DNA of 64,000 bases, taken from positions 64,001 through 128,000 of the forward strand of contig CBDCUI010000009.1 in assembly GCA_965222615.1 (NCBI GenBank), in the 5' to 3' direction. Source of the stretch: Gammaproteobacteria bacterium (GTDB lineage Bacteria; Pseudomonadota; Gammaproteobacteria; UBA4575). The translations under genes and the position numbers were made by a program. The notes beneath the pieces are model-generated. The model did no database searches and was not told where the DNA came from. It worked only from the letters and a program-made list of their open reading frames with translations. This document shows positions 16,177-42,032 of this stretch, piece by piece (positions within the stretch are counted from its first letter, which is position 1; every line of letters starts with the position of its first letter).

Positions 16177-16179
16177 AGT

Positions 16180-16228
16180 TATGAGGCTCACTTCCCTTTA
16201 ATAAACCTATAGGGATTCGATCCTCATA
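16180..16228. other. Imperfect inverted repeat directly after the helicase gene (candidate origin or terminator)
   Basis: TATGAGG..TCCCT..AATAAACC..AGGGA..CCTCATA. Confidence 0.45.
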
Positions 16229-16822: not shown

Positions 16823-17089
16823 ATGAAACTATATGTAGGTAATTTACCTTGGAGCGTAACTGATGTGGATTTAAAAGAACTTTTTAGTGAGGTTGGCGAA
16901 GTAACAAGCGCCACCATTATCACTGATAGAGATTCTGGTCGATCCCGTGGATTCGGTTTCGTAGAAATGGCGAAAGAGGCTGGCCAACAAGCGATTAAGA
17001 AATTCAGCGAGCACGTAATTGATAACAGAACGCTGCGTGTCAATGAAGCAAATGAAAAACAACCCCGTCAAGCTGGCGGCCATTCTTAA
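16823..17089 (+). CDS. RRM-domain RNA-binding protein
   Basis: RNP2 LYVGNL, RNP1 RGFGFVEM and LRVNEA. Confidence 0.95.
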   Translation: MKLYVGNLPWSVTDVDLKELFSEVGEVTSATIITDRDSGRSRGFGFVEMAKEAGQQAIKKFSEHVIDNRTLRVNEANEKQPRQAGGHS

Positions 17090-17169
17090 AAGGTAGTTGG
17101 GCTAATGATCTTCGGGCGACATAACAATGCCGCTCGAGATCCTTTGACTACACAAAAGGAGCTACTTCT

Positions 17170-17313
17170 ATGATCGAAGAAGAAGAAAAGAAGTTGATGG
17201 ATCAATACGGGGTCATTTCTCAGCAAAAAACGGTGTATCACTATAATGGGTACAACTATGACAATCTTGAAGATGCGATTCGGTATGCCAAGATTGACAC
17301 TCAGCGAAAGTGA
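17170..17313 (+). CDS. Small hypothetical protein (47 aa), not in the ORF track
   Basis: AAAGGAG RBS; MIEEEEKKLMDQYGVISQQKTVYHYNGYNYDNLEDAIRYAKIDTQRK. Confidence 0.65.
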   Translation: MIEEEEKKLMDQYGVISQQKTVYHYNGYNYDNLEDAIRYAKIDTQRK

Positions 17314-17352
17314 ATTTGGCCCGTTCCCACAAAATTCTATGAGGAAGCCAAC

Positions 17353-17745
17353 GTGAATACTATTAAAGATATCAAGATAAAAGGCTTAGACCCGAATCGA
17401 AGGCCCAGTCTAAAGAATAAAAACTACGTTGATATAATTTTCGAGCTGACTCAAAAAGCACCCAAAGACTGGTGCGCTGACTTCAATTTATTATTTTCAA
17501 AAGATAAGCACAACGCAAAGATAAATCCTGATGAGGGACGATATGTTGAGACATGGGTGAGAAATATTAACGACATTCCAAAAGAACTTGAGCTGATTAA
17601 ACAACTCATCGTAATCTGTAATAACAACTATATTGAACAAAAGCATCAAGAAGAACTAGCTTGGCAAAAATCTGAAAACAGCAAATCCAATAGCCGCAGC
17701 GATGAATTAGAAGGTATCCTGGCAAGCCTAAATTTCAATTCATAG
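17353..17745 (+). CDS. Hypothetical protein
   Basis: GAGGAAG RBS before GTG; 130 aa. Confidence 0.65.
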   Translation: MNTIKDIKIKGLDPNRRPSLKNKNYVDIIFELTQKAPKDWCADFNLLFSKDKHNAKINPDEGRYVETWVRNINDIPKELELIKQLIVICNNNYIEQKHQEELAWQKSENSKSNSRSDELEGILASLNFNS

Positions 17746-17776
17746 CTCTTGTCTGAAATTGGCCGAAAGGAATCAT

Positions 17777-18076
17777 ATGAATAAGGACTGCAAAGTCGTA
17801 CTTATTTCGAATTCTGGGTATAAAAAAGAACACAACGATCTATTGCAAGAGCTAATAGAAAATGAAATTGAACTTTTCTGTGCCGTGGGTATTGAGTGCC
17901 AGGAGTGGGAAGAAGCAATGGACTTGTTGTGTGCTGAGTTAGATGCAAATGACATTAAACCAAACGCTTTTTGCAACACGACATCTCATCCTAATGAAAG
18001 TGTTGAGGATGTGATTAAATTTGCCGAAAGTTGGAGCCAGAAAGGGGCAACAGAAGTAAAAATAATCGAGATTTAA
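17777..18076 (+). CDS. Hypothetical protein (cassette-like gene)
   Basis: ATG at 17777 uses AAAGGA from within the degenerate repeat as RBS; ends 12 nt before the next repeat. Confidence 0.7.
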   Translation: MNKDCKVVLISNSGYKKEHNDLLQELIENEIELFCAVGIECQEWEEAMDLLCAELDANDIKPNAFCNTTSHPNESVEDVIKFAESWSQKGATEVKIIEI

Positions 18077-18219
18077 CTAATGTAGTAGATGACCGCTATT
18101 GGCCGAAAGCGGACATAAACTAAGCCAGTAAGGCAGAAATTAGGTTGGATTCCATAAATAACATGTTCAAAATGACTGCTAACGACCCAAAGCGGACATA
18201 GGAAATAATAATATTTGAT

Positions 18220-18654
18220 ATGAAAAAGATACCAACTTTAAAAGCCGCGATGACTCCTTTCCCATATTCTGTACAGCTTGAAACGACGCTTACTGCTGTA
18301 AGGAATTTGATGCAAACGCACAATATTCATCATATTCCAGTTATGAATAGTGGGAAAATTGTAGGTGTAGTAACCGCAAGAGATGTTGAGGCAAGGCAAA
18401 AGATGATGGATAGCGATGATAATGAACCATCACTTGAGGTATTGCATGTTCCTATGTCTAAGGCTTATATCGTCGATATCAATGAACCGCTTGAAAATAT
18501 ATTGTTAACAATGGCTAGTAAACGAATTGGGGCTACTGTCGTAACTAAACATGGAAAATTAGTAGGAGTCTTTACATATATTGATGCTTGTCGTTATTTT
18601 AGTGAATACATAAAAGCAAAGTTTCCTAAAAATAATGATAATGATGCGGCATAA
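18220..18654 (+). CDS. CBS-domain pair protein
   Basis: MQTHNIHHIPVM..GKIVGVVTARD and GKLVGVFTYID. Confidence 0.9.
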   Translation: MKKIPTLKAAMTPFPYSVQLETTLTAVRNLMQTHNIHHIPVMNSGKIVGVVTARDVEARQKMMDSDDNEPSLEVLHVPMSKAYIVDINEPLENILLTMASKRIGATVVTKHGKLVGVFTYIDACRYFSEYIKAKFPKNNDNDAA

Positions 18655-18742
18655 GCATCAACTTTTGAATGACTGCTTTTGGCCGAAAGCGGACATAAAG
18701 AGCTAAGCCACATTAAAGCAACCTAGCTCTATCCCTGTAGCA

Positions 18743-19012
18743 CTAATAATTAAAAGACTCTGCTGTTAGTGTAACCTTTGTACCTTCTAACGCTTTCTTA
18801 AACGGTCCAAACTCTGGAGTGTCCCCAAAGATCGGAAAGCTACCGTCGCATCCAGTTAAGTAAATAAGTTGTTTGTCGTCTATGTCTCGGCCTTCACCCA
18901 CTATCAGTAATGCGCCGTCCTTGTCTGTATACATAGTACCTTCAACAAGATCTGCAAAACTTAATTCTTCTTCGCGATGTTCAGGTGTTTCCACTTCTAT
19001 ATCTACAATCAT
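18743..19012 (-). CDS. Hypothetical acidic protein
   Basis: GGAG RBS; 89 aa; only minus-strand gene of the element. Confidence 0.55.
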   Translation of the reverse strand: MIVDIEVETPEHREEELSFADLVEGTMYTDKDGALLIVGEGRDIDDKQLIYLTGCDGSFPIFGDTPEFGPFKKALEGTKVTLTAESFNY

Positions 19013-19266
19013 TATGTAGTTACTCCATGTAAATTAAATAAGTAACTACTTTAGTTACAAAGACACACCTAATCCAATCAATTCTCTTTCTAACTTGACT
19101 ACTCTAAACAGTTGAGAGTCGTCAACTACGGCGAGTAACTTACTGCTACAAATAACTAAAGCAGTGTTCGCTGCGTTTACAACATTCAATGACACTCAAC
19201 GATTGAGTACTGTCAAAAAATTCTACTTATAACCCACCCACTAACTCTGCAAAGGAGTACATAACT

Positions 19267-19506
19267 ATGAAATGGACAAAAGTAAATAAAGATACAGCAC
19301 ACAGATACGTAGTAGATGGAGGACTTCTTTCAGAAGGGGTTTCCACTCTCAGATCATTTAAGGATAAACTTCGCGCGACTAAGTTTGCAAAGGCTCTATC
19401 CAGAGCTATCGGTGCATGTAATTTATTAGATAAAGAGAAACTAGTTCTACAACGATTCGTTAAAGGTGACTCAAAAGCGACCTTTTCCGTAATTTACGCC
19501 TCTTAA
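19267..19506 (+). CDS. Hypothetical protein
   Basis: AAGGAG RBS. Confidence 0.55.
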   Translation: MKWTKVNKDTAHRYVVDGGLLSEGVSTLRSFKDKLRATKFAKALSRAIGACNLLDKEKLVLQRFVKGDSKATFSVIYAS

Positions 19507-19629
19507 TCCACTGATTTTGCTAAGGGTCAAATGTCTTATTTGAGCTATTTAAAACACCCCTAGCTCTACTATTAATTATTTAAACAAACGATCTGAGAGG
19601 CTCTCACGATCTATACCCATTCAATAATC

Positions 19630-19797
19630 ATGAATAACGAACCAATAACTACTCAAGACCCCGACATCAGGGTACTGCTAGAAAACATTCAAAGGCTGAG
19701 GTCATATGTCCCAGCCAAGGATAGTCTGTGGCAACGACTTAAAACTGCCAAGAAGAAAACTAGAAACAACAAACCTATAGGAAAACAAAACCAATGA
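19630..19797 (+). CDS. Small basic hypothetical protein (55 aa), not in the ORF track
   Basis: MNNEPITTQDPDIRVLL...; ATGA overlap with the next gene. Confidence 0.4.
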   Translation: MNNEPITTQDPDIRVLLENIQRLRSYVPAKDSLWQRLKTAKKKTRNNKPIGKQNQ

Positions 19798-20003
19798 AAT
19801 TAAATGTAGAAAAAGTTACTAACTACGTAAATGAAACCTACAAGTCACATGCTAATCAATCTGAACCCGTCATTTCAGATGTTGATCAAGAAGGTAACTA
19901 CACGGTTACTGTTGATCTACTGAAAGATGGTGAAGTAGTTAACACGACAGTTAGTAAGCACTCAGTGTCACCCGCTGAAGCAAGAGCGCACAACCTCTTT
20001 TAA
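19794..20003 (+). CDS. Hypothetical protein
   Basis: AGGA RBS; 69 aa. Confidence 0.55.
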   Translation: MKLNVEKVTNYVNETYKSHANQSEPVISDVDQEGNYTVTVDLLKDGEVVNTTVSKHSVSPAEARAHNLF

Positions 20004-20094
20004 TTGAGCATCAGCCACGCCCGTCGGAGCTAGTCGATTTTCGTTAAGTGGTTACGACGAATCCGACACCTAATTCAACCAACTAAATAAACAT

Positions 20095-20796
20095 ATGACA
20101 TCAAAACATATCCCTGCCGAAGCGGCAGTAAAGATCAATGAATGCAGACCATGCGCAGTAGATTGGTGCAGCGAGTACAGAGCAAATCTATATAAGTACT
20201 GTAAAAGACATGCTTACAGAGACGCTAGATACGGCGACACTAAGTTTACACCACCTGATAAAGCACAACTGTCTCAATATCGTGAATGGTCTTCTAAAGT
20301 ACTACAGGCAAATGCAAATGTACCTCATGTAATCGGTGCGCAACAAATGCTAAGGAAGATTGTTCAACATTGTTTAACTAATAAGAATGAACATGTTAGA
20401 GCGCATGCGAATCGCCTGAACAATTCATTCGATGCATTCAAGGCTTTGCATGATGTTTTTACTATTTGGCTGTGGAGTAATGATTGTTTACACCAAGCTA
20501 TCCAATTTCAAGCTAATGAAATTAAAGTACGCGACCGATTAATAGGAAGAAAATTCCTATCGGTGACACCCCTAAATAGTGAGCTGCATAAATGCAGTAA
20601 TCCAAGTGGGCGAGTCTGCCAAATCTACGGCGAATTAATAACACAAAACTTGCTAAGGATTTTTTTAGCCCTCACTCAAATCGTTGATGAGTCAAAAAAG
20701 ATGGAGCAAGAAGCCAAAGAAGAAAGTATCGAATTGAACTATCCGCAAGAGACCTTAGAACTTGCAAACAAAATGTTAAACCAACTAAGCAACTAA
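20095..20796 (+). CDS. Hypothetical protein with N-terminal Cys/His cluster (possible Zn finger)
   Basis: CRPCAVDWC...YCKRH. Confidence 0.6.
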   Translation: MTSKHIPAEAAVKINECRPCAVDWCSEYRANLYKYCKRHAYRDARYGDTKFTPPDKAQLSQYREWSSKVLQANANVPHVIGAQQMLRKIVQHCLTNKNEHVRAHANRLNNSFDAFKALHDVFTIWLWSNDCLHQAIQFQANEIKVRDRLIGRKFLSVTPLNSELHKCSNPSGRVCQIYGELITQNLLRIFLALTQIVDESKKMEQEAKEESIELNYPQETLELANKMLNQLSN

Positions 20797-20813
20797 CCAA
20801 AAAGGAAGTAAAA

Positions 20814-21683
20814 ATGAATGAAGAAAATAAAAGTGTAACTATTCAACACACAGATAATACTAGTAGAGGGTCAATATCCACTGAAGAAGTAACGCATGAT
20901 CAGTTACCGATGGGCAGATATCCACGACATCGCGTGTCTACTGAAGACTTCAAGCCTTATGAGGACAACCGATACGATGGCGGTCCGATAGTTAACGATT
21001 ACAGTAAATACAATACGAACCCTGCAAGTAAGACGATTCGCACCAATGAATCTGAAGTATACGGTGGTGAGGGCGAATTAAGCTTTCAAGCTATTACGGG
21101 CATGACTCGTAACTTTAGAAATGCTGAGCCGCATGACCTAGTTACCTTACCTGGTGGAATGGAACTAAAAGTTGAGCAAGCACTTGCACACGGAATGATT
21201 GTTAAGACAGATGAGGGCTATTCTTTACCTGGACAACCAGCACAACAACAACCTCAACCAGCTCAAAAGGTGAATGAGCAACAGTTTATTGAATTGAGTC
21301 CTGACGAAGATCACTCGCTTGCAAATGAGACCATGCAAGAACAAACCGAAGCTATGAGAGAGCATCTCGGTGATGATAAATATGAGCGTTATGCTGAACT
21401 AGTTGCTACTCACGATAATCTCGATGATGTAATTGACGCGCTCGGTGATGAGCTTCAGGGCAATTACGATTACGCAGAGACCGTTACAAATGCGCTAATT
21501 AAGAATGTGGTCAATGAAGGACTTACTTATGCTCAGGCAAGGGGAGCCGACCGAGAAGGCTTCAAGGCATATCTATTCAACCATCCGAACCAAGTTGCAG
21601 TTAAGAAAGCAATTACTAAGCTATTCAAAAGTCACAATCCTGCGCACTTGAACGAGTTCATTAATAGCTACGTAGCTAAGTAA
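20814..21683 (+). CDS. Hypothetical acidic protein, possibly capsid scaffold-like
   Basis: AAGGAAG RBS; P/Q-rich linker; acidic helical C-terminal half. Confidence 0.5.
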   Translation: MNEENKSVTIQHTDNTSRGSISTEEVTHDQLPMGRYPRHRVSTEDFKPYEDNRYDGGPIVNDYSKYNTNPASKTIRTNESEVYGGEGELSFQAITGMTRNFRNAEPHDLVTLPGGMELKVEQALAHGMIVKTDEGYSLPGQPAQQQPQPAQKVNEQQFIELSPDEDHSLANETMQEQTEAMREHLGDDKYERYAELVATHDNLDDVIDALGDELQGNYDYAETVTNALIKNVVNEGLTYAQARGADREGFKAYLFNHPNQVAVKKAITKLFKSHNPAHLNEFINSYVAK

Positions 21684-21756: not shown

Positions 21757-22086
21757 ATTAGTGATGAAACTTTATCCCTTAGCGAAGCTGCACATCTATT
21801 AAAGATGTCACCTGAAGCGTTACGGCGCAAAGCTAAGGCCTGTGATATTCCTGGCGCAAAACCTGCCAAGGAATGGGTATTTATTAAGGAAGATTTACTC
21901 GCTTACATCCGCTCATGTTATGCTAAACCTGTAACTGTGTGGAGTGAGCGATCAACTGAAAAGGAGATCAATCAATGCCATACAAACGAAAAGACAATGG
22001 AGTCTATTACTCCAATTTTGAATCCAGAAGTGGAGAGCGGGTACGAAAGAGCCTTAGGACGCGTGATAGAAATGAGGCCATCATAA
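21757..22086 (+). CDS. Excisionase-like HTH_17 protein, apparent ATT start
   Basis: ETLSLSEAAHLLKMSPEALRRKAK..IPGAKPAKEWVF; helix 1 lies upstream of the ATG at 21805; AAGGAG-N6-ATT; in-frame TAA at 21751. Confidence 0.7.
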   Translation: MSDETLSLSEAAHLLKMSPEALRRKAKACDIPGAKPAKEWVFIKEDLLAYIRSCYAKPVTVWSERSTEKEINQCHTNEKTMESITPILNPEVESGYERALGRVIEMRPS

Positions 22087-23036
22087 AAGAGGCTGAATTG
22101 ATTGCGGCAGATAAGGGTGAAGTCGTACAGATTAACAATAACCGGAAAACTTGGCGTGATGCTGTTTACCGATACTGGAATGAAGTGGAAGGTAAAGCTA
22201 GCGCTGATTGTATTCAAATACATTTAAGGTTCTTGGATACATTCTTAGGAGATAAGTATCTCGATGAGATCAATGATGAACTTATCGAAGATATTATTGC
22301 TGCTAAAAGTAGTGAGAAAAACCGTAAAGGTGAGAAGCTATCCGGTGCTACAGTTAATCGATTAACGGCGACGTTAAAGTCGGTGTTCAATAGTGCAAAG
22401 AAATACAGATGGATCGACAACGTTCCGTATGTAAGAAAGTTAGAAGAGTCAGAGGGTAGGAGTAGGTATCTCACACCATCTGAATCTAAACGATTACTTG
22501 ATCATTGTGCTGAACACTTAAAACCGATAGTGACATTTGCTTTGCATACAGGCTTGAGAAAGCAGAATGTATTAAGGCTTAGATGGGAGAATGTAGACCT
22601 CGATCAAGGTAAGTGCTGGGTGCTTAGCTCAGAGCATAAAAACCGAAAGGCGAGGGGTGTTACTCTCAATAGTGTTGCTTTAGGGGTGCTACGAGAATTA
22701 GCTATATATAAGGTGTCGCCCTATGTATTTAACTATAGGGGGCGGCCTATTGGAGATGTGAAGACGGGACTTAAGCGAGCCTGTGAACGGGCTGGCTTAA
22801 AGGACATATCCTTCCACACATTTCGACATACTTATGCTTCTTTACTAGCACAGCAAAACGTTTCGACCCTAGTTTTAAAGGAGCTAGGTGGATGGAAGTC
22901 AATGCAAATGGCTCAAAGATACGCTCATCTTAATGATGACGGACTGCGAGAATACCAAGAATTGCTTGTAGGTTTGTCACAGTACTGTGACAAAAATCCA
23001 CCGCCCAAGTTAAGGCTAGTAAGTGGAAAATCGTAA
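21975..23036 (+). CDS. int: Tyrosine recombinase / phage integrase
   Basis: TGLRK (R), HKN (K), HTFRH, LGGW and RYAH (Y); adjacent to attR. Confidence 0.95.
   Translation: MPYKRKDNGVYYSNFESRSGERVRKSLRTRDRNEAIIKEAELIAADKGEVVQINNNRKTWRDAVYRYWNEVEGKASADCIQIHLRFLDTFLGDKYLDEINDELIEDIIAAKSSEKNRKGEKLSGATVNRLTATLKSVFNSAKKYRWIDNVPYVRKLEESEGRSRYLTPSESKRLLDHCAEHLKPIVTFALHTGLRKQNVLRLRWENVDLDQGKCWVLSSEHKNRKARGVTLNSVALGVLRELAIYKVSPYVFNYRGRPIGDVKTGLKRACERAGLKDISFHTFRHTYASLLAQQNVSTLVLKELGGWKSMQMAQRYAHLNDDGLREYQELLVGLSQYCDKNPPPKLRLVSGKS
22973..22994. promoter_or_regulatory. Perfect 22-bp palindrome (candidate integrase arm-site pair)
   Basis: TTTGTCACAGTACTGTGACAAA; the TGTCACA/TGTGACA half-site also occurs near attL (7586, 7644). 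Confidence 0.6.
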
Positions 23037-23067
23037 GTGATTGAGTTAAATTAGGAAATTCGGTTAT

Positions 23068-23143
23068 GCGGGAATAGCTCAGTTGGTAGAGCGCAACCTT
23101 GCCAAGGTTGAGGTCGCGAGTTCGAACCTCGTTTCCCGCTCCA
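23068..23143 (+). tRNA. tRNA-Gly (GCC), intact, includes attR
   Basis: 76-nt cloverleaf GCGGGAA...TTGCCAA...GTTCGAA...TTCCCGCTCCA. Confidence 0.98.
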
Positions 23144-23429: not shown

Positions 23430-24239
23430 TTATTTTCTTCTTATATTAGGTTTGATCCCAATAATGGATTCTCTTATCTGTATCCATATTTGAAGTATTG
23501 TCTTTTTTAAAAGATCACCGTCGGGTACAAGGAACTTAATAATGAGCCCACATTCATTGGGTAACAATGTAGCGCCTCCGTAAATATTGTCATAATTTTG
23601 CATATTAGTTTGTAAAGTTTCTAGTAAAGAATTATTCATATTTGAGCGGTTAATAACTGAAACTGTACCCATACCAATATATCTTTGTTTGCTATTTAAA
23701 AAGTTTTTTTGGTTCATTAGATAGGCATCTTTAGCTAGAAGCTCATTTTTTTCTGTATAAATTTGTAAATAGCTATTTAGTTGACTAAAAAGCTGGTTGT
23801 TGCCATTGAGAAAATGCAATAAGAAAGCATCCACAATGACAACGGTACTTGTTTCATCAACATATGCATTAATTGTCGAGTAAAGCTTAGATGCCGGAAA
23901 AAGTATTAGTGGATCCGATATGTATTCCGTATAGGCATGTTCATTAGCGTTTATATTAATAACTTGTTGCGCATTTTTATTTGTCATGCCATGTACAATA
24001 GTGGAAGCCTGTGTTGTGATATGACTAAATGATTCTGCATTAGCAGTTACATTGGTAGTAAGCGTTTCATTTTCGTATATTCCACCCGATGCAGATTGAA
24101 TATAGATATTGGCCATACCGTAAGGGTCATTCTCATAATATTGAGTCCGACAAATATGAAAAGGGTAGGATGCATACTGATTCTTAAGGTATGTTTTTCC
24201 ATCTTCGTTTTTAGTAAATTCCAGAGATAATTCACTCAT
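23430..24239 (-). CDS. ureD: Urease accessory protein UreD
   Basis: QYASYPFH, SASGG and ITTQASTIVH; last gene of the ure operon. Confidence 0.85.
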   Translation of the reverse strand: MSELSLEFTKNEDGKTYLKNQYASYPFHICRTQYYENDPYGMANIYIQSASGGIYENETLTTNVTANAESFSHITTQASTIVHGMTNKNAQQVININANEHAYTEYISDPLILFPASKLYSTINAYVDETSTVVIVDAFLLHFLNGNNQLFSQLNSYLQIYTEKNELLAKDAYLMNQKNFLNSKQRYIGMGTVSVINRSNMNNSLLETLQTNMQNYDNIYGGATLLPNECGLIIKFLVPDGDLLKKTILQIWIQIRESIIGIKPNIRRK

Positions 24240-24262
24240 TAACTTATTTTTATCGTTTTGAG

Positions 24263-24874
24263 TTAATTGAATAACACATTATTGACTATATGATTAACAA
24301 CTTCTTCTATACCTTCTCCAGTTTTGCAGTTAGTGAGTACAAGGGGTTTACCATCCCTAACTTCTTGGCTTTCTTTCACCATTAAGTCAACATCGGCGCC
24401 TACATAGGGGGCCAGATCAACTTTATTGATCACCAATAGATCGGATTGCACAACTCCTGGTCCGCGTTTTCTAGGAATATCGTCGCCTTCGGAGGTATCG
24501 ATGACGAACATCCAATAATCGACAAGGTCTAGAGAAAAGGTGGATGCAAGATTATCGCCACCACTTTCAATCAATATGATGTCCAAATTTTGGAATTCAT
24601 TATCCAAGCGATCTGCAGCTTGTATATTTAAGGTGGGATCTTCGCGAATAACGGTATGTGGACAAGCACCGGCTTCCACTGCAATAACACGTTCAGGTGC
24701 AAGCAAACCCGATTGCTGTAGACGTTTAGCATCTTCTCGCGTAACTAAATCATTCGTTACAATTGCAATTTCATTTCCTCTATTAATAAAAAAGGGAATT
24801 AATTGCTCAATCAGTGCAGTTTTCCCTGAACCAACAGGACCACCGATACCGACTCGTGCAGGACCATTTGACAT
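24263..24874 (-). CDS. ureG: Urease accessory GTPase UreG
   Basis: [20 protein letters not shown] and NKVD. Confidence 0.96.
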
Positions 24875-24882
24875 GTGTGTAG

Positions 24883-26595
24883 CTACCGAAGCATATATCG
24901 CTGAGTTAGTGGTAATGTTTTAGCGGGCTCGCAAGTAGCAAGCTCATCATCCACATAGACATCAAAGGTTTCAGGATTGACAGTAACTTTTGGACAACTA
25001 TCGTTATGTAACATGTGACTTTTGTTCAATTTGCGCGTGCCTTGTGCAGGCAAATTGGTTTTTTGAAGCTGCAATTTATCACCAATATTATCATCAACTG
25101 CAGATTGGTTGACAAAATTTACACTTAGATGTTGCTTAGCATTACCAAATGCACCCCATTGTGGTCGCATCGCTAAAGGTTCACAAGTCATTAACGATGC
25201 AGCACTGTCGCCCATTGCCGACCAAACAATAAATCCACCTTTAACGACTAGTTCAGGTTTAATTCCAAAAAATGCAGGTTTCCACAAGACTACATCACCC
25301 ATTTTTCCCTTTTCCAGAGAACCGATGTACTGATCAATACCAAAAGTACGTGCAGCATTAATTGTATATTTTGCAATAAAACGTTTTATTCTTTCATTAT
25401 CACCACCTTTAGTAGTTTCTTCTGCAAGGCGCCCGCGTTGGTCTTTCATCTTGCTAGCAAGTTGCCAAGTTCGACAAATGACTTCATTAATGCGACCCAT
25501 ACCTTGACTGTCTGAACCCAACATAGAAATTGCACCAAGATCATGTAATACATCTTCTGCGGCAATGGTCTGTGCACGAATACGACTCTCGGCAAATGCT
25601 ACGTCTTCCGGTATGGCGGGGTTTAAATGATGACAAACCATTGTCATATCTAAATGCTCATCAAAGGTATTAACGGTATATGGATTTGTCGGGTTGGTAG
25701 AGGAGGGCAGACAGTTATATTCACCAGCAACCCGGATAATATCGGGAGCATGACCTCCACCTGCACCTTCGGTGTGATACATATGAATTGTACGACCATT
25801 GATTGCCGCTAAGGTGTTTTCGACAAAACCACTCTCGTTGAGTGTGTCTGTATGCAATTGGACCTGGAAATCTAAATCATCAGCAACGGCAAGGCAGGTG
25901 TCAATTACTGCAGGCATCGCGCCCCAATCTTCATGAATTTTTAGTCCTAAACAGCCCCCCGCCATTTGGTCGATTAAAGATCTAGGTTTAGATGAATTAC
26001 CACGCCCCAAAAAACCAAAGTTTAGCGGCCATTGTTCCGATGCTTGTAACATCTTGCCAACATTCCACGCACCGCCACAATCGATACCTACTGTAATTGG
26101 TCCAAGTGAGCCTCCAATCATAGTAGTAATACCAGAACTTATTGCATGTTCACAGAGTTGTGCACTGTCAAAATGTACATGTACATCTATTCCCCCAGGG
26201 GTTGCAATAAGTCCTTCTGCATCACGCACAGTAGTTGCTGCTGCACAAACAAGATCAGGGTCAACATTGTCCATAGTGGCGGGATTACCCGCTTTGCCTA
26301 CACCGGCAATTTTTCCTTGTTTAATTCCGATATCGGCTTTAACGATTCCCAATACAGGATCGATAACCAGTGCATTGCTAATTAACATGTCTAACGACCC
26401 TGCAGCACTATCATAGCCAGGGGTTAACCCCAAGCCATCACGTAATGTTTTACCTCCTCCATGTAAACACTCATCACCATGTACAGCATAATCGTGTTCC
26501 ACTTCTGCTAATAAAGATGTATCACCAAGGCGTACCGCATCTCCAGTAGTGGGGCCGTACATCACTGCGTATTCTTTTCTTGAAATTTTGATCAT
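24883..26595 (-). CDS. ureC: Urease alpha subunit (divergent)
   Basis: [40 protein letters not shown] and SDSQ. Confidence 0.93.
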
Positions 26596-26597
26596 TG

Positions 26598-27299
26598 TTA
26601 TACTCCTTTATACCCGCGGATTTTTGCTTGATATAGAGCTTCTTGTTTTTTAACTTCATTAGAAGTCGATCCATTCGTTAAGCTATTTAAACCATGCACT
26701 TCTCCTGCACCACCGAACGGGACTAATTTTACTTCTTTGCTTTCACCTGGTTCAAAACGTACTGCGGTGCCTGCAGGAATATCTAAATGTTTTCCAAATG
26801 CATTTTCGCGTTTGAAATCTAGAGCAGGGTTAACCTCAAAGAAATGAAAGTGGCTGCCAATTTGTACAGGTCGATCTCCAGTATTTAACACTTTAATCTT
26901 CGTAGAAGATTTATTTTCGTTAATTTTCACATCACCGCTACCAGGAATTATTTCACCGGGTGTGACATCATCTTTACTTTTAGACTTTTTCTTGCCTGAA
27001 CGGATTGGTTCGTGAACGGTTACAAGTTTTGTTCCATCAGGAAATGTTGCTTCTACTTGTAGCATATGCATCATTTCTTCTACACCAGTCATTACATCAT
27101 CAGTACTTAATAGGGTAGAGCCATGACTAATCAGCTCTGCTACAGTGCGTCCTTCTCTAGCACCTTCTAATATTTCATCTGCAATAATTGCAGTTGCTTC
27201 AGGATGGTTTAATTTTAATCCTTTTTTTTGTCTTTTTCGTGCCAGCTCGGCTGCTGTATATATAGTTAGTCGTTCTAATTCGGTTGGTGTTAAAAGCAT
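26598..27299 (-). CDS. ureAB: Fused urease gamma-beta subunit
   Basis: [29 protein letters not shown] joined to [26 protein letters not shown]. Confidence 0.93.
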
Positions 27300-27332
27300 T
27301 GTTCTCCTCCAAATTTTAGAATAATTATTTAT

Positions 27333-28013
27333 TTAGTTCACAAACAGCCTTGCGTCAGCATTTTCATGACGCATAGAAGCGATATCTGCCAAAGGAGTAA
27401 AAGCATTAATTTCTTCAATTTCAGGAATTGGCCAAGCCGAAGCCTCAGTAATTAAGTTACAAATTCTTGATAAGCTTTTTTGGCATTCAATGTGTCCAAT
27501 AAGCCCAAGCCGTAATGCGGCTCCAAATACAGAGACGCAAAAATTATATGCGGATAAAAGTAATACAAAGTTTTTAGGCAGGCCTATCGAATTCCATATC
27601 AACCCTTGTGATATAGGCAAATGCCCATAGGCTTTGTTGCTTTTAATTAAAGATTGGTAATATTGTGCTTCTGGAATGTTTAATTTGTTATAAGTGGTTA
27701 ATAAAGCCGCGCCTAATCTTTTTGAACCATTTCTTAGTTCGCTAGCTAATGTCATGCATTCAACTAAATGATCTATATAAATTATTTTTTCTATATCATT
27801 TACATTGTCATAAGTATGAGCCAAAACGACCCGTTCGAATGGGCTCCATCTTTCAATAAGTTGGTTTTTGACAAAATCTTTCACATCTTTTGTAGAAGTG
27901 ATGATATTGTCATCCTTTAACATTTCTAAACCCCAAGAAAATGACACGGCACCAGACGGGAAAAAACTATCACCGTGTTGCAAGAGAGTAAGAATTTGTT
28001 TTTCTTTAGTCAT
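27333..28013 (-). CDS. ureF: Urease accessory protein UreF
   Basis: DSFFPSGAVSFSWGLE; C-terminal H....RLF. Confidence 0.9.
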   Translation of the reverse strand: MTKEKQILTLLQHGDSFFPSGAVSFSWGLEMLKDDNIITSTKDVKDFVKNQLIERWSPFERVVLAHTYDNVNDIEKIIYIDHLVECMTLASELRNGSKRLGAALLTTYNKLNIPEAQYYQSLIKSNKAYGHLPISQGLIWNSIGLPKNFVLLLSAYNFCVSVFGAALRLGLIGHIECQKSLSRICNLITEASAWPIPEIEEINAFTPLADIASMRHENADARLFVN

Positions 28014-28455
28014 TATTAATTTGTTTTACTTTTTTTTGTGTAAAGAAGTCTTGTAGGCGTTCTAGGTAGATTTTTTTTGGATTTTCAAGAGCGATATCTA
28101 AGCGGTCTTTTGCAAATTTCACGCGCCAATGCATGTTGCCAGCAAAATATCCTAGTTCAATAGCTGCTGAAACATCTGTAGGTTGAAGTGAAAGCCATCG
28201 ATCTTCGGATGTTTTAACTACGATAGCTCGATCTTTTTCAAGCAATAAAACTGCACCATTTGATAATTTATTGTCACGCGAAATAGAAACAGCACAGTCA
28301 GTGCCTTTATCAGTTTGAGCTCGAAATCGCCTGCGTTGTAAATTTGCGTGATCTAGAACAATATATTCAACTTTATTTTGGTGTGACAAATCGTGCAGTA
28401 TATTCGACAGTTTCGAATCATGTGAATAACCAACTACGTTTTGTATCTGTATCAT
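28006..28455 (-). CDS. ureE: Urease accessory protein UreE
   Basis: RRRFRAQTDKG and LGYFAGNMHW. Confidence 0.88.
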   Translation of the reverse strand: MIQIQNVVGYSHDSKLSNILHDLSHQNKVEYIVLDHANLQRRRFRAQTDKGTDCAVSISRDNKLSNGAVLLLEKDRAIVVKTSEDRWLSLQPTDVSAAIELGYFAGNMHWRVKFAKDRLDIALENPKKIYLERLQDFFTQKKVKQINND

Positions 28456-28509
28456 TAGGAATTATTATTTACATCAATATTCAACCAAATATTTTTTATT
28501 CCTCAAAAT

Positions 28510-28580
28510 AAAAAAGGCCCACCCGCACAAGTAATTTTGTGCTGGTAGGCCCCTTTGCCTGGTCCGTGCAATTTACACGG
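28510..28580 (-). promoter_or_regulatory. ANTAR-type attenuator in the ure leader
   Basis: Minus strand: CCGTG-N7-CACGG, then AGGC-AAAGGG-GCCT hexaloop (A1/G4) overlapping the terminator GGCCTACC...GGTGGGCC-TTTTTT. Confidence 0.75.
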
Positions 28581-28756
28581 TTAATCTGTAATTAAATGTC
28601 TAGATATATGTTTACTATAAACTTAAAGTTCTTTATATAGTCATAGCTATTTCTAATTCTGACTGTAAATATACGCTAGGTCAAGTTTACTGTGTTTTGT
28701 TTATTAACGTTTAGATTTCAATATGCCCTTCCTTATCTAGTTTTATTCTATGCGGC

Positions 28757-29374
28757 TCATATAACTTCATTCGCATGGATTATAGCCTCAGCGACATTTT
28801 GGATAGTGGTATGTTTTTGCATAGCATGTTTTCTAATAATCCGATAAGCCTCAGCTTCATTAACAGAGCGCTTGGTCATAATAATTTCTTTGGCTTTCAC
28901 TAGGGTATTAAGATTTTTTATTCGTTGTTCAAGTTTATTATTATGTTCACGAGCCTGCTGGTGTCTATTGTAGCTTCTTTGTGCAATGATAAGGCTAGAT
29001 AAAATACCAAAATTTCGAAACGGTAAACCAATAACCGCGTCGGCATTCAGTCTTAATGATGCTTCAATCGATACAGGATTTTCATAATCAAGGACCACAA
29101 CCAATGCGGCGGGTGGGTTTTTGACATCCCAATTAAATGCAACTTCTGTTTCAACAATAGGCCGCAGAGCTACCATAACGACGTCAATATCTGATGTAAT
29201 ATTTTTAGGTGGAGGCCAAGAACTAGTAATCCGGCAACCTATTCTTTCTAAGTGTTTATATAGATTTTTACTATCTCTACTACGAGGTTGAATTAGTAAT
29301 AGACGAGTGGTGCGTATATTACGGATCAGCTCAGAAACTGATCCTTTTGTATTTCTATCCCAACCACGACTCAT
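28757..29374 (-). CDS. AmiR-like ANTAR antiterminator
   Basis: Pseudo-receiver N-terminus (LERIGC..WPPP); ANTAR KAKEIIM..EAEAYRIIRKHAM. Confidence 0.88.
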   Translation of the reverse strand: MSRGWDRNTKGSVSELIRNIRTTRLLLIQPRSRDSKNLYKHLERIGCRITSSWPPPKNITSDIDVVMVALRPIVETEVAFNWDVKNPPAALVVVLDYENPVSIEASLRLNADAVIGLPFRNFGILSSLIIAQRSYNRHQQAREHNNKLEQRIKNLNTLVKAKEIIMTKRSVNEAEAYRIIRKHAMQKHTTIQNVAEAIIHANEVI

Positions 29375-30516
29375 TGATGATTTGCTAACCTTAACCCCAT
29401 TTCCAAATTTTGTCTGGAGTGGTCAACTAAATAGGGATCTGGTTTTATAGGCTTGTTTGATTGAGCTATTATTTTGTAGTCGCCATGCGGATTAATTTTT
29501 GCAATCCTTGACCATAGGTATGCATGATGAGTTTCAGAATCAATCCGGATGGTACCTTGAGGTGCATTGATTTCTATTTCTGGAATAGCGCTTCTAAGTA
29601 TCGCTGTATCCAGGCTATTTGTATGTGCAAGGGCCTTAGCAAATAAATGAAATTGAAAATAAGCAGCCTCACAACACATGCTTGTACGTTGGTGTTGTCC
29701 GAATTTTTCACGATAGTTTTTTGTAAATAAATTATTAGCTTTACTATCAATAGACTCAAAATATGTCGCAGCACCGATATGTCCGCTGGCAACAGAATAC
29801 CCCATCTGTTCAATTTCAGCTTCAGATGTTACAACGCTCGCAATAGGGAGTTCAGTCGGGTCAAGGCCTATGCGGTTATATGCTTCATAAAAGCTTATAA
29901 TCGATTGCCCTACTAAAATTGAAAAAATTATATCTGGTTTATTTTTTGCGATATCTTCGATTGTTTTTGAGATTTCTTGCTCGCTAGCATTTAGCGAGTG
30001 ATACTTTTCATTTAGGATAGTACCACCACTTTCTGTGACTAGATCAAAAACTATTCTGTGTGATTCGTAAGGAAAAATATAATTTGAGCCTACCAGATAA
30101 AACCTTTTCCCATAGTTTTTGAGTAAATAATCCGTCAACCAAACGCTGTATTGATTAGGACAAGCACCTGTATAAAAGACGTTTTCAGAAAATTCAAATC
30201 CTTCATAGAAAGTCGGATAAAATAGCAAAGCATTGTTTTGTTCAATAACTGGCAACATCGCCTTGCGACTGGCTGATGTATAACCACCGAAAATAACATT
30301 TACACCATCATTATTAACTAACCGTTCAGCTAAATCATGATAATTTTCAGGATCAGAAGCTGGGTCATAAATAACAGGTTCAACCTCTCTCCCGGCGATT
30401 CCACCAGCTGCATTAACTTCTTCAATAGCAAGCAGGGTTCCGTTTAACAGTGTTTGTTCAGAAACAACGGTACAACCAGACTTAGAGAATAGAACACCGA
30501 TGCGCCAAGGTTGCAT
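29371..30516 (-). CDS. AmiC-like cytoplasmic amide/urea sensor (PBP fold, no signal peptide)
   Basis: IGVLFSKSG, GGYTSASRKA, YEGFE and GSNYIFP; overlaps amiR. Confidence 0.85.
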   Translation of the reverse strand: MQPWRIGVLFSKSGCTVVSEQTLLNGTLLAIEEVNAAGGIAGREVEPVIYDPASDPENYHDLAERLVNNDGVNVIFGGYTSASRKAMLPVIEQNNALLFYPTFYEGFEFSENVFYTGACPNQYSVWLTDYLLKNYGKRFYLVGSNYIFPYESHRIVFDLVTESGGTILNEKYHSLNASEQEISKTIEDIAKNKPDIIFSILVGQSIISFYEAYNRIGLDPTELPIASVVTSEAEIEQMGYSVASGHIGAATYFESIDSKANNLFTKNYREKFGQHQRTSMCCEAAYFQFHLFAKALAHTNSLDTAILRSAIPEIEINAPQGTIRIDSETHHAYLWSRIAKINPHGDYKIIAQSNKPIKPDPYLVDHSRQNLEMGLRLANHQ

Positions 30517-30921: not shown

Positions 30922-31830
30922 ATGTGTGGGATTGCCGGCATTATGCTGAAGGACTCATCCAACTTTAAGACAGGTGAGGCTTTGGTGAATATGCTGAACG
31001 GCTGTCAACACCGTGGCCCAGATTCTACTGGTTTCGCTTTATATAGCGACTCGCATGAAAATACATTAAAACTAAGACTATTAGTAGGTAAAGGTGAAAT
31101 AGGGACTGCAGCGATTACCAGAATTAAAAAACTGCTGCAAGAATATGACGCATCCATTATAGATGAGGAGCATATTGGAGAAACCTATCGCGGAACAGTT
31201 AAATACTCAGGTGATATTCAAAAATTTTCTTACGCACTTGAACACGCCGCAAAAGTTGTTTCTATCGGAAATAGCCTGGAGATTATTAAAGATGTAGGCA
31301 GTGCAGAAGATGTAGACGAACGTTATGACATACATAAATATACGGGCTCACATGGTTTAGGACATGTACGGTTAGCAACGGAATCAGATGTGAAGCCTGA
31401 GGCTGCACATCCTTTTTGGGCCACCGGGTTTGCAGATGTTGCCATTGTACACAATGGGCAAATCACAAATTACTGGAAAATGCGCAGACGTCTTGAACAA
31501 CGTGGTTATGAATTTCGTACAGATAACGATAGTGAGCTAATCGCTGTTTATCTTGCGGATAAACTATCTCAAGGTATTGCATTAAAAGAAGCGCTTAAGA
31601 CTTCTATTGATGACCTGGATGGTACATTTTCATTCCTTGTTTCTACAAAAGATGAAATCGGTTATGCAAAAGATCGCTTGGCAGTCAAGCCTATGGTTAT
31701 GTATGAAACGGATGATTTAGTTGCGGTGGCATCTGAGGAAGTCTCGCTTAATAGATTATTTCCAGGACAAGCACTTAATACTAAAGAACCACCACCAGGA
31801 ACTTATAACACATGGTCACGATCGATCTAG
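30922..31830 (+). CDS. Class II glutamine amidotransferase (GlxB/MgsA-like)
   Basis: MCGIAG, HRGPDS, GHVRLAT, VHNGQITN and DSE. Confidence 0.85.
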   Translation: MCGIAGIMLKDSSNFKTGEALVNMLNGCQHRGPDSTGFALYSDSHENTLKLRLLVGKGEIGTAAITRIKKLLQEYDASIIDEEHIGETYRGTVKYSGDIQKFSYALEHAAKVVSIGNSLEIIKDVGSAEDVDERYDIHKYTGSHGLGHVRLATESDVKPEAAHPFWATGFADVAIVHNGQITNYWKMRRRLEQRGYEFRTDNDSELIAVYLADKLSQGIALKEALKTSIDDLDGTFSFLVSTKDEIGYAKDRLAVKPMVMYETDDLVAVASEEVSLNRLFPGQALNTKEPPPGTYNTWSRSI

Positions 31831-33779
31831 GCAAAACTTCCGTTAGAGAAGGTAACGAACAAATTCGGCAATGCGGTCAGAATGGGGAAAATGTTGAAGT
31901 CATCAATCCAGATGCGCGTCATCATATCGGCGTAGGTTTAATTCACCCCATTAATGTAAAAGTACGAGGTTCTGCAGGTTATTTCTGTGCAGGATTAAGT
32001 GATGCTGCGCATTTTGAAATAGAAAGCAACGTTGGTTGGGGTGTTGGCGATAATATGTATTCCGGTTCTGTAGTTGTAGGAGGTAACGCAGGCGCAATAC
32101 CTGGCGTTGCTATTCGCGGCGCTGAAATTGTTGTCCGTGGAAACATGGGTTCACGTGCGGGTCAGGTGATGAAAGCAGGGACGTTATGTTGTGCAGGCAA
32201 TGCAAACTTTATGGCCGGTTATATGATGTATGGTGGTCGCATTATCATCTTGGGGAATTCAGGAGAGAAAGTCGGCGAGGATATGTCTGCAGGTGAAATA
32301 TTTATTGGTGGGAAAGTTGAAAACTTAGGTTCTGATGCAGAGTTAACTGACATAGACAGCGCTGAAATAGATGATGTAATGGAATTTCTAGAGCGTTATA
32401 AAATATCGTTCAAAGGGAATTTTCAAAAAGTAGTTAATGCGGGTAAGAAATTACGCTACGCAACTTCTGAACAACAAATGCGTAGTATCCCGTTTTATTC
32501 ATTCTCAGGAACTTCCGATTACTGGAATCCTAAAATACAAGAAGACTTATACGTTAAATCTCAAATAGGGCGTTATCGAATCCGTGGATATGGTGGTGCA
32601 AGACCATTGCCTCATTTTTCAGACATTACTTTTAAAAAAGATCTGTCCCTTGCTGGCAACGAGATAGATGTAGTTTCCAAAATAAAAATGCGCACTGAAA
32701 TTGGCGGTATTAATGGCGCCGATCCACTTAAATTAAGTATGCCAGTGATGATCGCGCCTATGAGTTATGGTGCACTGAGTGCCTCTACCAAAAGAGCAAT
32801 TGGACTTGCTTCTACACTTTCTGATATCGCCGAAAATACTGGTGAAGGGGGCATGAGTGATGCCCAACGTGATGCTGCCAAACAGCTGATATTTCAAATG
32901 CTTGGTGGACGACTGGGTTGGAATATTCACGATATGAATCGTGCCGATGGTTTAGAAATTTACATATCACAAGGGGCGAAACCTGGTTTAGGTGGGCAAT
33001 TAATGGCGAAAAAAGTCACGCCTGAACTTGCCAAAATTAGAGGTATTCCGCCCGGTATCGATTTGCGTTCACCTTCTAGACACCCCGATATCTTAGGTGC
33101 AGATGATCTGGTAATTAAAGTCGAAGAGTTGCGTGAGGCAACCGGTTACCGATTGCCTGTCAGCATTAAGCTGGGTGCTGGCCGAGTTCGTGACGATATA
33201 AAAATTGCCGTTAAAGATGGTTTTGACTTTGTCGAATTGGATGGAATGCAAGGTTCTACCGGTGCTGGAAGTGCAGAAGTCATTGACTATGTAGGGGTCC
33301 CAACTTTACCGGCAATTATCGAAGCGCTTGATGCCTTAAAAGAAATTGGTAGGCGTGATGATATTCAGATTGTCCTAATGGGTGGAATCCGTGATGGTGT
33401 AGATGCGGTAAAAGCATTGTGTTTAGGTGCCGATGCAGTAGCTTTGGGTACATCAACCATCATTGCTGGTGGTTGTATTGCATGTATGCAATGTCATGTA
33501 GGTCAATGTGTGACAGGGATTGCAACCCAAGATCCTGAGCACGAAAAACGTTATGAACCTGAAGTCGAAGCGAAGAATATTCATCGCTTCTTAGAAAGTG
33601 TACGTTGGCAGATTGCTGCAATTGCAAATGAACTGGGGTATGACGATGTTACTCAATTTAATCGCAACGACTTAGTGGCACTAACACCGGAAGCTGCTGA
33701 TATGACTGGTTTACCTTATGAGCCTCAATATGGTCGTGCAGATATTGATATCGATATCAAAGTGAGGGCTGCAGTATGA
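31812..33779 (+). CDS. GXGXG domain fused to FMN-binding glutamate synthase domain (GlxC-GlxD / MgsB-MgsC-like)
   Basis: Gly-rich beta-helix; APMSYGALS, NTGEGG, SQGAKPGLGG and CIACMQCHVGQCVTGIATQ. Confidence 0.88.
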   Translation: MVTIDLGKTSVREGNEQIRQCGQNGENVEVINPDARHHIGVGLIHPINVKVRGSAGYFCAGLSDAAHFEIESNVGWGVGDNMYSGSVVVGGNAGAIPGVAIRGAEIVVRGNMGSRAGQVMKAGTLCCAGNANFMAGYMMYGGRIIILGNSGEKVGEDMSAGEIFIGGKVENLGSDAELTDIDSAEIDDVMEFLERYKISFKGNFQKVVNAGKKLRYATSEQQMRSIPFYSFSGTSDYWNPKIQEDLYVKSQIGRYRIRGYGGARPLPHFSDITFKKDLSLAGNEIDVVSKIKMRTEIGGINGADPLKLSMPVMIAPMSYGALSASTKRAIGLASTLSDIAENTGEGGMSDAQRDAAKQLIFQMLGGRLGWNIHDMNRADGLEIYISQGAKPGLGGQLMAKKVTPELAKIRGIPPGIDLRSPSRHPDILGADDLVIKVEELREATGYRLPVSIKLGAGRVRDDIKIAVKDGFDFVELDGMQGSTGAGSAEVIDYVGVPTLPAIIEALDALKEIGRRDDIQIVLMGGIRDGVDAVKALCLGADAVALGTSTIIAGGCIACMQCHVGQCVTGIATQDPEHEKRYEPEVEAKNIHRFLESVRWQIAAIANELGYDDVTQFNRNDLVALTPEAADMTGLPYEPQYGRADIDIDIKVRAAV

Positions 33780-39890: not shown

Positions 39891-39892
39891 GG

Positions 39893-41733: not shown

Positions 41734-41748
41734 AGGTAATCTTTAAAG

Positions 41749-42030: not shown

Positions 42031-42032
42031 AA

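Follow-up and report, generated by a model that had tools for sequence, protein, structure and literature searches.

An amiC-amiR pair followed by urease genes, located in a 64,000-nucleotide stretch of DNA from a gammaproteobacterium of the UBA4575 lineage (assembly GCA_965222615.1, contig CBDCUI010000009.1, positions 64,001 to 128,000; hereafter, the window), probably encodes a genuine urease of a distinct structural subtype, to which we assign a probability of roughly 0.65. As read from the sequences, this urease would serve as a mobile urea-disposal module, placed here under AmiC/AmiR antitermination. The subtype is horizontally spread and is marked by a fused UreAB alongside UreC, a fixed gene order (ureE-F-AB-C-G-D), a shortened loop with an Asp that faces the pocket from the Ni(2) side, and Gly in place of Ala363. 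Urea as the substrate is supported by the intact catalytic inventory and fold, a score above the equivalog cut-off and a full accessory set; by urea-producing enzymes of the dimethylguanidine hydrolase (DmgH) type encoded directly upstream in 7 of 80 related loci (the best 80 of 513 relatives in a scan of species-representative genomes, 75-96% identical) and in two further loci; by Urt-type transport genes in 29 of the 80; and by 11 of 45 carrier genomes that have no long-loop canonical urease.

UreC retains the catalytic residues of ureases and has a remodelled pocket

We mapped the residues of UreC (P0001) by alignment to Klebsiella aerogenes UreC (1ejw_C, whose numbering is used here) and to the genome's own canonical UreC, to which the same numbering applies. 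All nickel ligands were found intact, i.e., H139/H141 (=H134/H136), K219 (=K217, carbamylated), H248 (=H246), H274 (=H272) and D362 (=D360), as were the catalytic and polarising residues H221/D223 (=H219/D221), the flap pair C321-H322 (=C319-H320) and R338 (=R336), in line with the initial annotation of this DNA, which had reported the ligands and the flap Cys-His as preserved. UreC aligns end-to-end with 1ejw_C (688.9 bits) and scores 826.9 bits against TIGR01792 (urease alpha, EC 3.5.1.5), where the equivalog cut-off is 680. An AlphaFold2 model (predicted local distance difference test score, pLDDT, 90.4; predicted template modelling score, pTM, 0.94) has the urease fold, matching 39 urease chains with template modelling (TM) scores of 0.95-0.97 and root-mean-square deviations of 1.6-2.2 Å. 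The maturation proteins UreD, UreE, UreF and UreG are all encoded in the window cluster, as judged by Pfam and NCBIfam profiles; among the 45 related loci with flanks of 8 kb left and right, they are each present in 41-45. With the dinickel centre retained, along with the carbamylated Lys, His219, Asp221, Arg336 and the flap Cys-His, the reaction is expected to follow the canonical course.

Three changes surround this centre: canonical HFICPQ reads HFDSAQ (142-146 plus Q), the Ala167-bearing loop GGGTGPATGTNATTCTPG is three residues shorter (loop 161-177, PITVGID), and SDSQAMGR reads SDSQGMGR, that is, Ala363 is replaced by Gly (Gly365 in P0001). The canonical pocket wall, made of the GTxATT loop with Ala167 and of Ala363 in SDSQAMGR, is not present in the window's UreC; in the place of Ala167, HMMER aligns a Gly and MAFFT a Val, and two new Asp residues, D143 and D172, lie near the pocket. 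The initial annotation had pointed to these three changes and to Ala residues lining the urea site, and the latter point is confirmed for the carbonyls of Ala167 and Ala363: in the available excerpt of PMC7433671, the backbone carbonyls of the corresponding Ala170 and Ala366 of Sporosarcina pasteurii hold the Ni(2)-bound urea nitrogen, the site of which is also contacted by the Ala366 C-beta.

Such a pocket raises the alternative of a neofunctionalised urease homolog, in which the rebuilt Ni(2) side shifts the substrate to another R-CO-NH2 compound (N-methylurea or other N-substituted ureas, hydroxyurea, semicarbazide, formamide or biuret-like compounds) that is imported by an amide transporter and sensed by the AmiC paralog, leaving urea at most a side activity. 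We regard this alternative as unlikely, yet it deserves to be weighed throughout. It draws on the concentration of clade-invariant remodelling at canonical positions 135-172 and 363, on the two new Asp residues, and on the room that Gly makes where the Ala366 C-beta would contact the Ni(2) ligand site (PMC7433671, same excerpt). However, the residues acting on the leaving NH3 and on the carbonyl oxygen are unchanged, and the pocket's hydrogen-bond acceptors are backbone atoms, which can survive an Ala-to-Gly substitution.

The remodelled pocket is invariant in a clade spread across phyla

A protein search, in which the 8000 candidates sharing most words were scored, yielded at least 120 clusters at 84-96% identity among the matches listed. 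Motifs were counted in the 78 related UreC open reading frames (ORFs) with more than 90% coverage. SDSQGMGR and the shortened loop ending in [CS]GG are invariant in 78/78, H[VI]HFDSA likewise, and the same holds for each of KIHEDWG, MVCHH and ESRIR; the Ala363 position is Gly in 79/79. The nickel-ligand motifs are also kept in all 78, the only deviation being T275 of HTEG, which is Ala in two. Since these motifs are invariant, the pocket changes do not reflect drift of a single gene, and the observed remodelling is confirmed and clade-specific. Forty-five alignment columns separate the clade from 13 canonical UreCs, and 15 of them fall within canonical positions 135-172 (38 of 573 columns; hypergeometric P ~1e-8). 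Invariance inside a clade that is at least 75% identical is nevertheless, by itself, no evidence for a new substrate. The gamma-beta fusion and the gene order, both noted as atypical in the initial annotation, are real as well, and the order is the same throughout the 80 related loci.

A quick maximum-likelihood tree (IQ-TREE; 51 of 120 alignment rows, the variant clade thinned to the window plus every fourth sequence and ten degenerate representatives excluded) recovered the clade as monophyletic, with support of 100 in the Shimodaira-Hasegawa-like approximate likelihood ratio test (SH-aLRT). It nests in a short-loop/Gly363 lineage together with more divergent UreC-like proteins (99), sister to the canonical ureases (99). 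This kinship with more divergent lineages can be counted towards a changed substrate; at the same time, the deeper representatives also have the short loop and Gly363, so the short loop may be the older state. The separate clade expected in the initial annotation was thus found, and its expected tie to amiC/amiR holds for a part of it, AmiR being encoded in the window and in 26 of the 80 loci.

The hosts of the related loci comprise Alpha- and Gammaproteobacteria, one Chloroflexota metagenome-assembled genome (MAG), Nakamurella (Actinobacteria) and Oceanobacillus (Bacillota), with Methylobacterium/Methylorubrum, Paracoccus limosus, Amorphus coralli and Pontibaca salina among the cultured ones; further hosts, from a plasmid collection, are Aminobacter, Shinella, Ancylobacter, Acinetobacter and M. 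radiotolerans. This spread across phyla and on plasmids, together with the integrase and tRNA-Gly beside ureD, would also suit a silent or decaying duplicate acquired by horizontal transfer, parallel to ure2 of Brucella, where only ure1 encodes an active urease according to the part of PMC2868824 at hand. We hold this to be very improbable: all eight ORFs are intact, and between phyla UreC keeps 75-96% identity and an unvarying set of catalytic residues, which indicates purifying selection.

Beyond the clade, a wider UreAB-UreC-like radiation was noted (L094-L100 and L128-L131; P0132, P0134, P0135, P0137, P0139, P0141 and P0154), with short loops, Gly363, flaps reading MLAHI, MVAHR or MSSHL and HEDLG, HEDFG or HEDYG motifs, in which all nickel ligands and His320 are kept. 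One member, L129, has a full accessory set and an Urt-like transporter, and L130 and L131 have no adjacent ones; the divergent UreC-like gene of L094 lies ~8 kb from the variant cluster of L014.

Neighbouring genes in related loci point to urea

In the layout that recurs among the related loci, amiC-amiR is followed by a gene for a binding protein, by genes for Urt-type permeases and ATPases and then by ureEF(AB)CGD; the permease and ATPase genes of one locus, L040, pass the UrtB/C/D/E equivalog cut-offs. An AmiE aliphatic amidase is co-oriented in 23/80 loci (NF009802, 710-722 bits, cut-off 427), and FmdA formamidase occurs in 6/80 (NF045496, 559.5 bits); for an amidase-signature enzyme, one query gave 6/80 and clustering 10 loci. 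With AmiE and FmdA in the same operons, acetamide and formamide are already served, leaving urea as the unserved small amide.

In seven of the loci, two co-oriented arginase-family genes stand in tandem upstream of ureE, the second separated from the ureE start by some tens of bases; the two score 612 and 558 bits against metformin hydrolase subunits A and B; HypA is encoded upstream in six of these seven and HypB in five, and an SsuA-type ATP-binding cassette (ABC) system usually comes before them. Enzymes of this kind from Aminobacter and Hyphomicrobium convert dimethylguanidine to dimethylamine and urea, and their genes were noted to cluster with urease genes, as stated in the accessible portion of Sinn et al. 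2024 (PMC11399263). Among 300 genomes drawn independently from one order, seven DmgH-type loci were found in five new genomes; two of these have an adjacent urease (L134, L135), in both cases of the variant subtype and in none canonical. In four ureohydrolase-linked genomes that we checked, the variant is the sole UreC homolog in two (G006, G031), and only short-loop types occur in the other two (G032, G035).

The initial annotation had inferred a possible non-urea substrate, such as a methylated urea, formamide/acetamide or a carbamate. This is not favoured by the amidases just described, nor by operons that release urea (PMC11399263, same portion) ahead of the variant urease, including both urease-adjacent cases of the independent draw.

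Other observations on these operons stand apart from this argument. The remaining five DmgH-like loci of the independent draw (L136-L140) have no urease within the fetched flanks, of which L136 and L139 end at contig ends; four of the five have hypB-hypA upstream of the tandem ureohydrolases, and L139, which starts at a contig end, has hypA only. We dropped a tie of L135 and L137 to cultured Aminobacter, as the identities to the solved metformin hydrolase, estimated by eye, are ~70% and ~80% (577 and 677 bits), compared with ~93% reported between Aminobacter strains, and no link could be drawn from the variant to the urease encoded behind dmgH in the cultured strain. Adjacency to ureide catabolism, seen on the Aminobacter and M. 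radiotolerans plasmids, was likewise set aside as a general link, with 0-1 hits in the 80 loci.

A cytoplasmic AmiC-type sensor and a terminator leader precede ureE

The AmiC-type amide sensor that the initial annotation placed upstream is confirmed by Pfam domains, P0008 being a cytoplasmic sensor of the type-I binding fold next to an AmiR_N plus ANTAR protein. Its domain begins at residue 4, with no signal peptide, versus residues 30-44 in transporter binding proteins. P0008 scores 288.5 bits against Pseudomonas aeruginosa AmiC (1pea), higher than against UrtA structures, and its 357.6 bits against the UrtA model TIGR03407 lie below the cut-off of 492.75.

Ten pocket positions were compared with the UrtA urea site of PMC10392092, the available part of which lists Trp120, Ser122, Tyr141, Gln144, Glu146, Tyr190, Asn246 and Ser274 as urea contacts and calls Gln144 and Asn246 strictly conserved. 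P0008 reads YSYTFEYFVV, the AmiC of the genome's amidase operon YSYTLEYYVT, P. aeruginosa AmiC YSYTPEYYVT and canonical UrtA WSYVQEYYNS, so that P0008 shares 7/10 positions with AmiC. Among 60 linked AmiC/Urt-like proteins, Asn246 is missing in all 60 and Gln144 in 58, which again would suit a substrate other than urea. Yet a non-UrtA signature does not preclude urea: six of 18 proteins that pass the UrtA cut-off (L115, L117-L120, L124; Methylophaga, Methylobacterium and others) have Thr143, Phe144, Trp192 and Val246 (WSYTFEYWVS), and one of them is encoded ~5 kb from a canonical ureC in Methylophaga. These proteins represent either a second urea-binding mode or an amide/urea binder. As they share a similar non-UrtA signature, we rejected pocket residues of binding proteins as a decisive discriminator of substrate and, for the same reason, residues alone cannot prove urea sensing.

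The signature of P0008 is identical to that of the transporter binding proteins of the urease-only Methylophaga loci L040 and L042. Sensors with Phe or Gln at position 144 accompany urease-only loci (5 versus 1, the window counted) and those with Leu144 accompany AmiE loci (12 versus 3; Fisher P 0.014, the kin not being independent). Judging from these comparisons, P0008 would bind the enzyme's own substrate, probably urea. An alternative is that the enzyme is a true urease and the AmiC paralog senses a short-chain aliphatic amide, the urease being induced with the amide regulon as a general ammonia-releasing add-on. P0008 indeed shares 53% identity with its paralog encoded in the amiC-amiR-amiE operon of the same genome and scores better as AmiC than as UrtA, and in the 23 AmiE-containing loci a single AmiC/AmiR pair appears to govern transporter, AmiE and urease together. 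Nonetheless, the genome keeps two AmiC/AmiR pairs that differ at pocket residues 144, 192 and 274, sensors with Phe or Gln at 144 track urease-only loci, and neither an amidase nor a transporter was found beside the window's pair, and we consider amide sensing improbable.

Antiterminators of the ANTAR type act on leaders with paired hexaloop hairpins that have A at loop position 1 and G at position 4, the second hairpin overlapping an intrinsic terminator. In the spacer between amiR and ureE, hairpin 2 (AGGC-AAAGGG-GCCT, 28560-28547) fits this consensus with its AAAGGG loop, and its 3' arm is the start of the stem of a terminator stem-loop (28556-28511) that is followed by a T-run. The leader folds at -38.6 kcal/mol (z = -6.1), and none of 200 shuffles was as stable; searched against Rfam, it matched no family. 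A like layout precedes amiE in the genome's C8 operon (amiC-amiR-amiE-amiB-like-VWA-acs), and of the 20 related loci that could be tested, 12 have a terminator-like hairpin downstream of amiR.

Carriers usually have a canonical urease as well

On contig C8 of the window's genome there is, in addition, a canonical locus (urtABCDE-ureDABCEFG) with a UreC of 1005 bits (TIGR01792), which answers the question of a second urease raised in the initial annotation. Among the other carriers, 34/45 likewise have a long-loop canonical urease; nine of those without it have the variant UreC only, and two have short-loop types only. Of 400 evenly drawn Pseudomonadota genomes, 149 have any UreC and three the variant type, all three with a canonical copy, against a base rate of 146/397 for the canonical urease; the co-occurrence is positive, with an odds ratio of 5.8 for related genomes that are not independent. 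Coexistence in these carriers and in 3/3 of the drawn genomes is a further point for a changed substrate, and the carriers that do without a canonical urease are a point against it. The overall pattern fits a role that is not redundant, be it through another substrate or through another regulatory niche.

Two features of C8 were noted in passing. The canonical urt-ure locus is immediately followed, at C8:930360-945230 (L127), by a classical amiC-amiR-amiE-(CbbQ-type AAA)-VWA-acetyl-CoA synthetase operon, with an Fmd/Urt-like ABC transporter encoded divergently from it. In this region, one half of the UT urea-transporter family is matched by each of two adjacent ORFs (C8:935741-936121 and 936180-936602), and the gene looks split.

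Several observations weigh against a plain urease in the window. The remodelling affects precisely the two pocket walls predicted to bind the urea nitrogen at Ni(2), and does so invariantly, and the neighbouring short-loop UreC-like proteins have altered flap and HEDWG motifs. Co-occurrence with a canonical urease is as expected of a non-redundant function, and most carrier genomes are MAGs of unstated completeness. The DmgH link covers 7/80 loci and excludes the window; indeed, the window has no ureohydrolase pair, and tblastn found no DmgH homolog in its genome. P0008 does not carry the UrtA urea set (Trp120 is Tyr, Gln144 Phe, Asn246 Val and Ser274 Val) and resembles the acetamide-binding AmiC, and hairpin 1 of the leader (CCGTG..CACGG, 28580-28564) has a loop of 5 or 7 nt and no hexaloop. 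Finally, literature searches on the clade, on second ureases and on urease homologs acting on formamide or methylurea gave nothing relevant to the clade and no enzymology for any member.

Layout of the cluster and its surroundings

The cluster (window positions 23430-30516, minus strand) consists of eight ORFs and a leader, in the order amiC-amiR-leader-ureE-F-AB-C-G-D (Table 1). The start of amiR overlaps the stop of amiC by 4 nt.

Table 1. Features of the amiC-amiR-urease cluster, in window coordinates
Feature	Position	Strand	Basis
amiC-like cytoplasmic ligand sensor, 381 aa (P0008)	29371..30516	-	Pfam Peripla_BP_5 over residues 4-366
amiR-type ANTAR antiterminator, 205 aa (P0007)	28757..29374	-	Pfam AmiR_N 1.2e-27 and ANTAR 6.8e-12
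leader RNA within the 301-nt amiR-ureE spacer	28505..28580	-	sequence and RNA fold
ureE, 149 aa	28006..28455	-	Pfam UreE_N; NCBIfam NF009752 177.9 bits (cut-off 162)
ureF, 226 aa	27333..28013	-	Pfam UreF 3.6e-28
ureAB, fused gamma-beta structural subunit, 233 aa	26598..27299	-	Pfam Urease_gamma 1-99 and Urease_beta 114-210; NF009671 'bifunctional urease subunit gamma/beta' 346.4 bits (cut-off 243)
ureC, alpha subunit, 570 aa (P0001)	24883..26595	-	Pfam Urease_alpha and Amidohydro_1; TIGR01792
ureG GTPase, 203 aa	24263..24874	-	TIGR00101 249.9 bits (cut-off 204.2)
ureD, 269 aa	23430..24239	-	Pfam UreD 7e-27

Just past ureD lie a tyrosine integrase gene (21975-23143, plus strand) and, directly after it, tRNA-Gly(GCC); a repeat of the 3' end of this tRNA, searched for as an island limit, was not found. 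To the left of the integrase, several ORFs at 14257-21683 have no Pfam match, and 16493-18697 holds four copies of a ~48-nt intergenic repeat (core ATGAC[CT]GCT..CC.AAAGCGGACAT) that looks like a repetitive extragenic palindromic (REP) element. Opposite ureC, at 26150-26445 (plus strand), is a weak Rfam match to the Helicobacter 5' ureB antisense small RNA (23.9 bits, gathering threshold 40, E 0.004), which probably reflects just the conservation of urease coding sequence.

At 36401-46530 (minus strand) are genes for a NicO-like nickel transporter, hypB, hypA, a 196-aa ORF, hypE, hypD, a SIS-domain protein, hypF, an NHL-repeat protein and a NifU-Rieske protein. This hydrogenase maturation cluster may share its nickel supply with the urease; NicO-like genes come after ureD in L005, L006, L023, L039 and L134.

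Divergent from the cluster (30922-36304, plus strand) are genes for a class-II glutamine amidotransferase (302 aa), a fusion of GXGXG and flavin mononucleotide (FMN)-binding glutamate synthase domains (655 aa) and a GltD-like protein (842 aa) with a second, weak FMN-barrel domain at its C-terminus. The initial annotation had taken this operon for a 'Glx/Mgs-like' one; with its GltD-like subunit, it looks like an unusual split glutamate synthase-like system and not a methylamine pathway. In 7/80 related loci, neighbouring glnT homologs pass the model for type III glutamine synthetase, and in L007 and L008, which are the closest relatives, such genes lie ahead of ureE. A methylamine/N-methylglutamate link was accordingly rejected, the GltD-like subunit and the type III glutamine synthetase being read as ammonia assimilation and not as evidence for methylurea.

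Proposed function and implications

In the scheme that we propose, the cluster would encode a nickel-dependent urease that converts urea to ammonia and carbamate, in which the rebuilt loop and the backbone of Gly365 presumably accept the hydrogen bonds of the amide nitrogen at Ni(2). The subtype would act as a portable urea-disposal module, placed behind urea-releasing enzymes or amide/urea importers. In the absence of ligand, AmiC would hold AmiR and transcripts would stop at the terminator before ureE. Ligand binding to AmiC would free AmiR to bind the hexaloop hairpin overlapping the 5' arm of the terminator, allowing read-through into ureEF(AB)CGD. This switch is modelled on AmiC/AmiR of P. 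aeruginosa and extended to the window by analogy; its least certain step is the AmiC ligand, most likely urea. The canonical urt-ure locus of the genome would then provide high-affinity scavenging, and the second urease would be substrate-induced.

Urease has counted as a textbook case of an enzyme with a single substrate and one conserved pocket, and a second pocket architecture is now seen, which crosses phyla, is plasmid-borne, usually stands alongside a canonical urease and is wired into amide and guanidine catabolic operons. If the variant is a plain urease, the Ala167/Ala363 wall is not essential for urea hydrolysis, and genome annotation and ureC-based environmental surveys pool two lineages with distinct regulation and ecology. 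Should its specificity have shifted, a whole family of nickel amidohydrolases would await discovery. Both readings are directly testable, since clade members are known in the culturable strains Methylobacterium radiotolerans JCM 2831, Aminobacter aminovorans KCTC 2477 and Amorphus coralli DSM 19760. More speculatively, the short-loop/Gly363 pocket might give a substrate range or an inhibitor tolerance that canonical ureases lack (e.g., N-substituted ureas or formamide), the AmiC paralog might be the first known ligand-sensing antitermination switch for a urease, and the clade might form the urea-proximal tip of a UreAB-UreC nickel amidohydrolase radiation that takes in the L094-L100 types and the deeper representatives; we put this combination forward tentatively and think it doubtful.

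Comparison with known systems

Compared with the canonical ureases, i.e., K. aerogenes UreABC/UreDEFG and the S. pasteurii enzyme, the variant shares the fold (TM 0.96-0.97, with 56% identity to K. aerogenes UreC in the structure alignment), identical nickel ligands, the carbamylated Lys, His219/Asp221, Cys319-His320 and Arg336, and the same four accessory proteins. It differs in its gamma-beta fusion, in the order ureE-F-AB-C-G-D as opposed to ureDABCEFG, in the loop after strand 2, which is three residues shorter and carries a new Asp, in HFDSAQ for HFICPQ and Gly for Ala363, and in forming a separate clade.

The two-subunit architecture is common to the variant and the Helicobacter pylori urease, in which UreA is a gamma-beta fusion and UreB the alpha subunit, and the H. 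pylori operon runs ureABIEFGH. However, the matches of the variant to the Helicobacter-type models NF010592 and NF010591 are below the cut-offs, and Helicobacter-type UreB keeps the long loop and Ala363, unlike the variant, whose fusion probably arose independently of that of Helicobacter.

Like the amiEBCRS operon of P. aeruginosa, the window has a cytoplasmic AmiC-type sensor, an AmiR_N-ANTAR protein and a terminator leader before the regulated genes. Here, however, these genes form a urease operon and not an amidase gene, and positions 107, 152 and 233 of the sensor (AmiC numbering) are Phe, Phe and Val, compared with Pro, Tyr and Thr in P. aeruginosa. A literature search for ureases under AmiC, AmiR or ANTAR control found no paper describing such control, which would be a new regulatory mode for urease.

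A parallel in gene arrangement is offered by the DmgH/metformin hydrolase operons (PMC11399263, in the portion cited above): in the tandem-ureohydrolase loci and in L134 and L135, the same ureEF(AB)CGD subtype follows the ureohydrolases, with hypB/hypA upstream where found, whereas the window's module is coupled to AmiC/AmiR instead.

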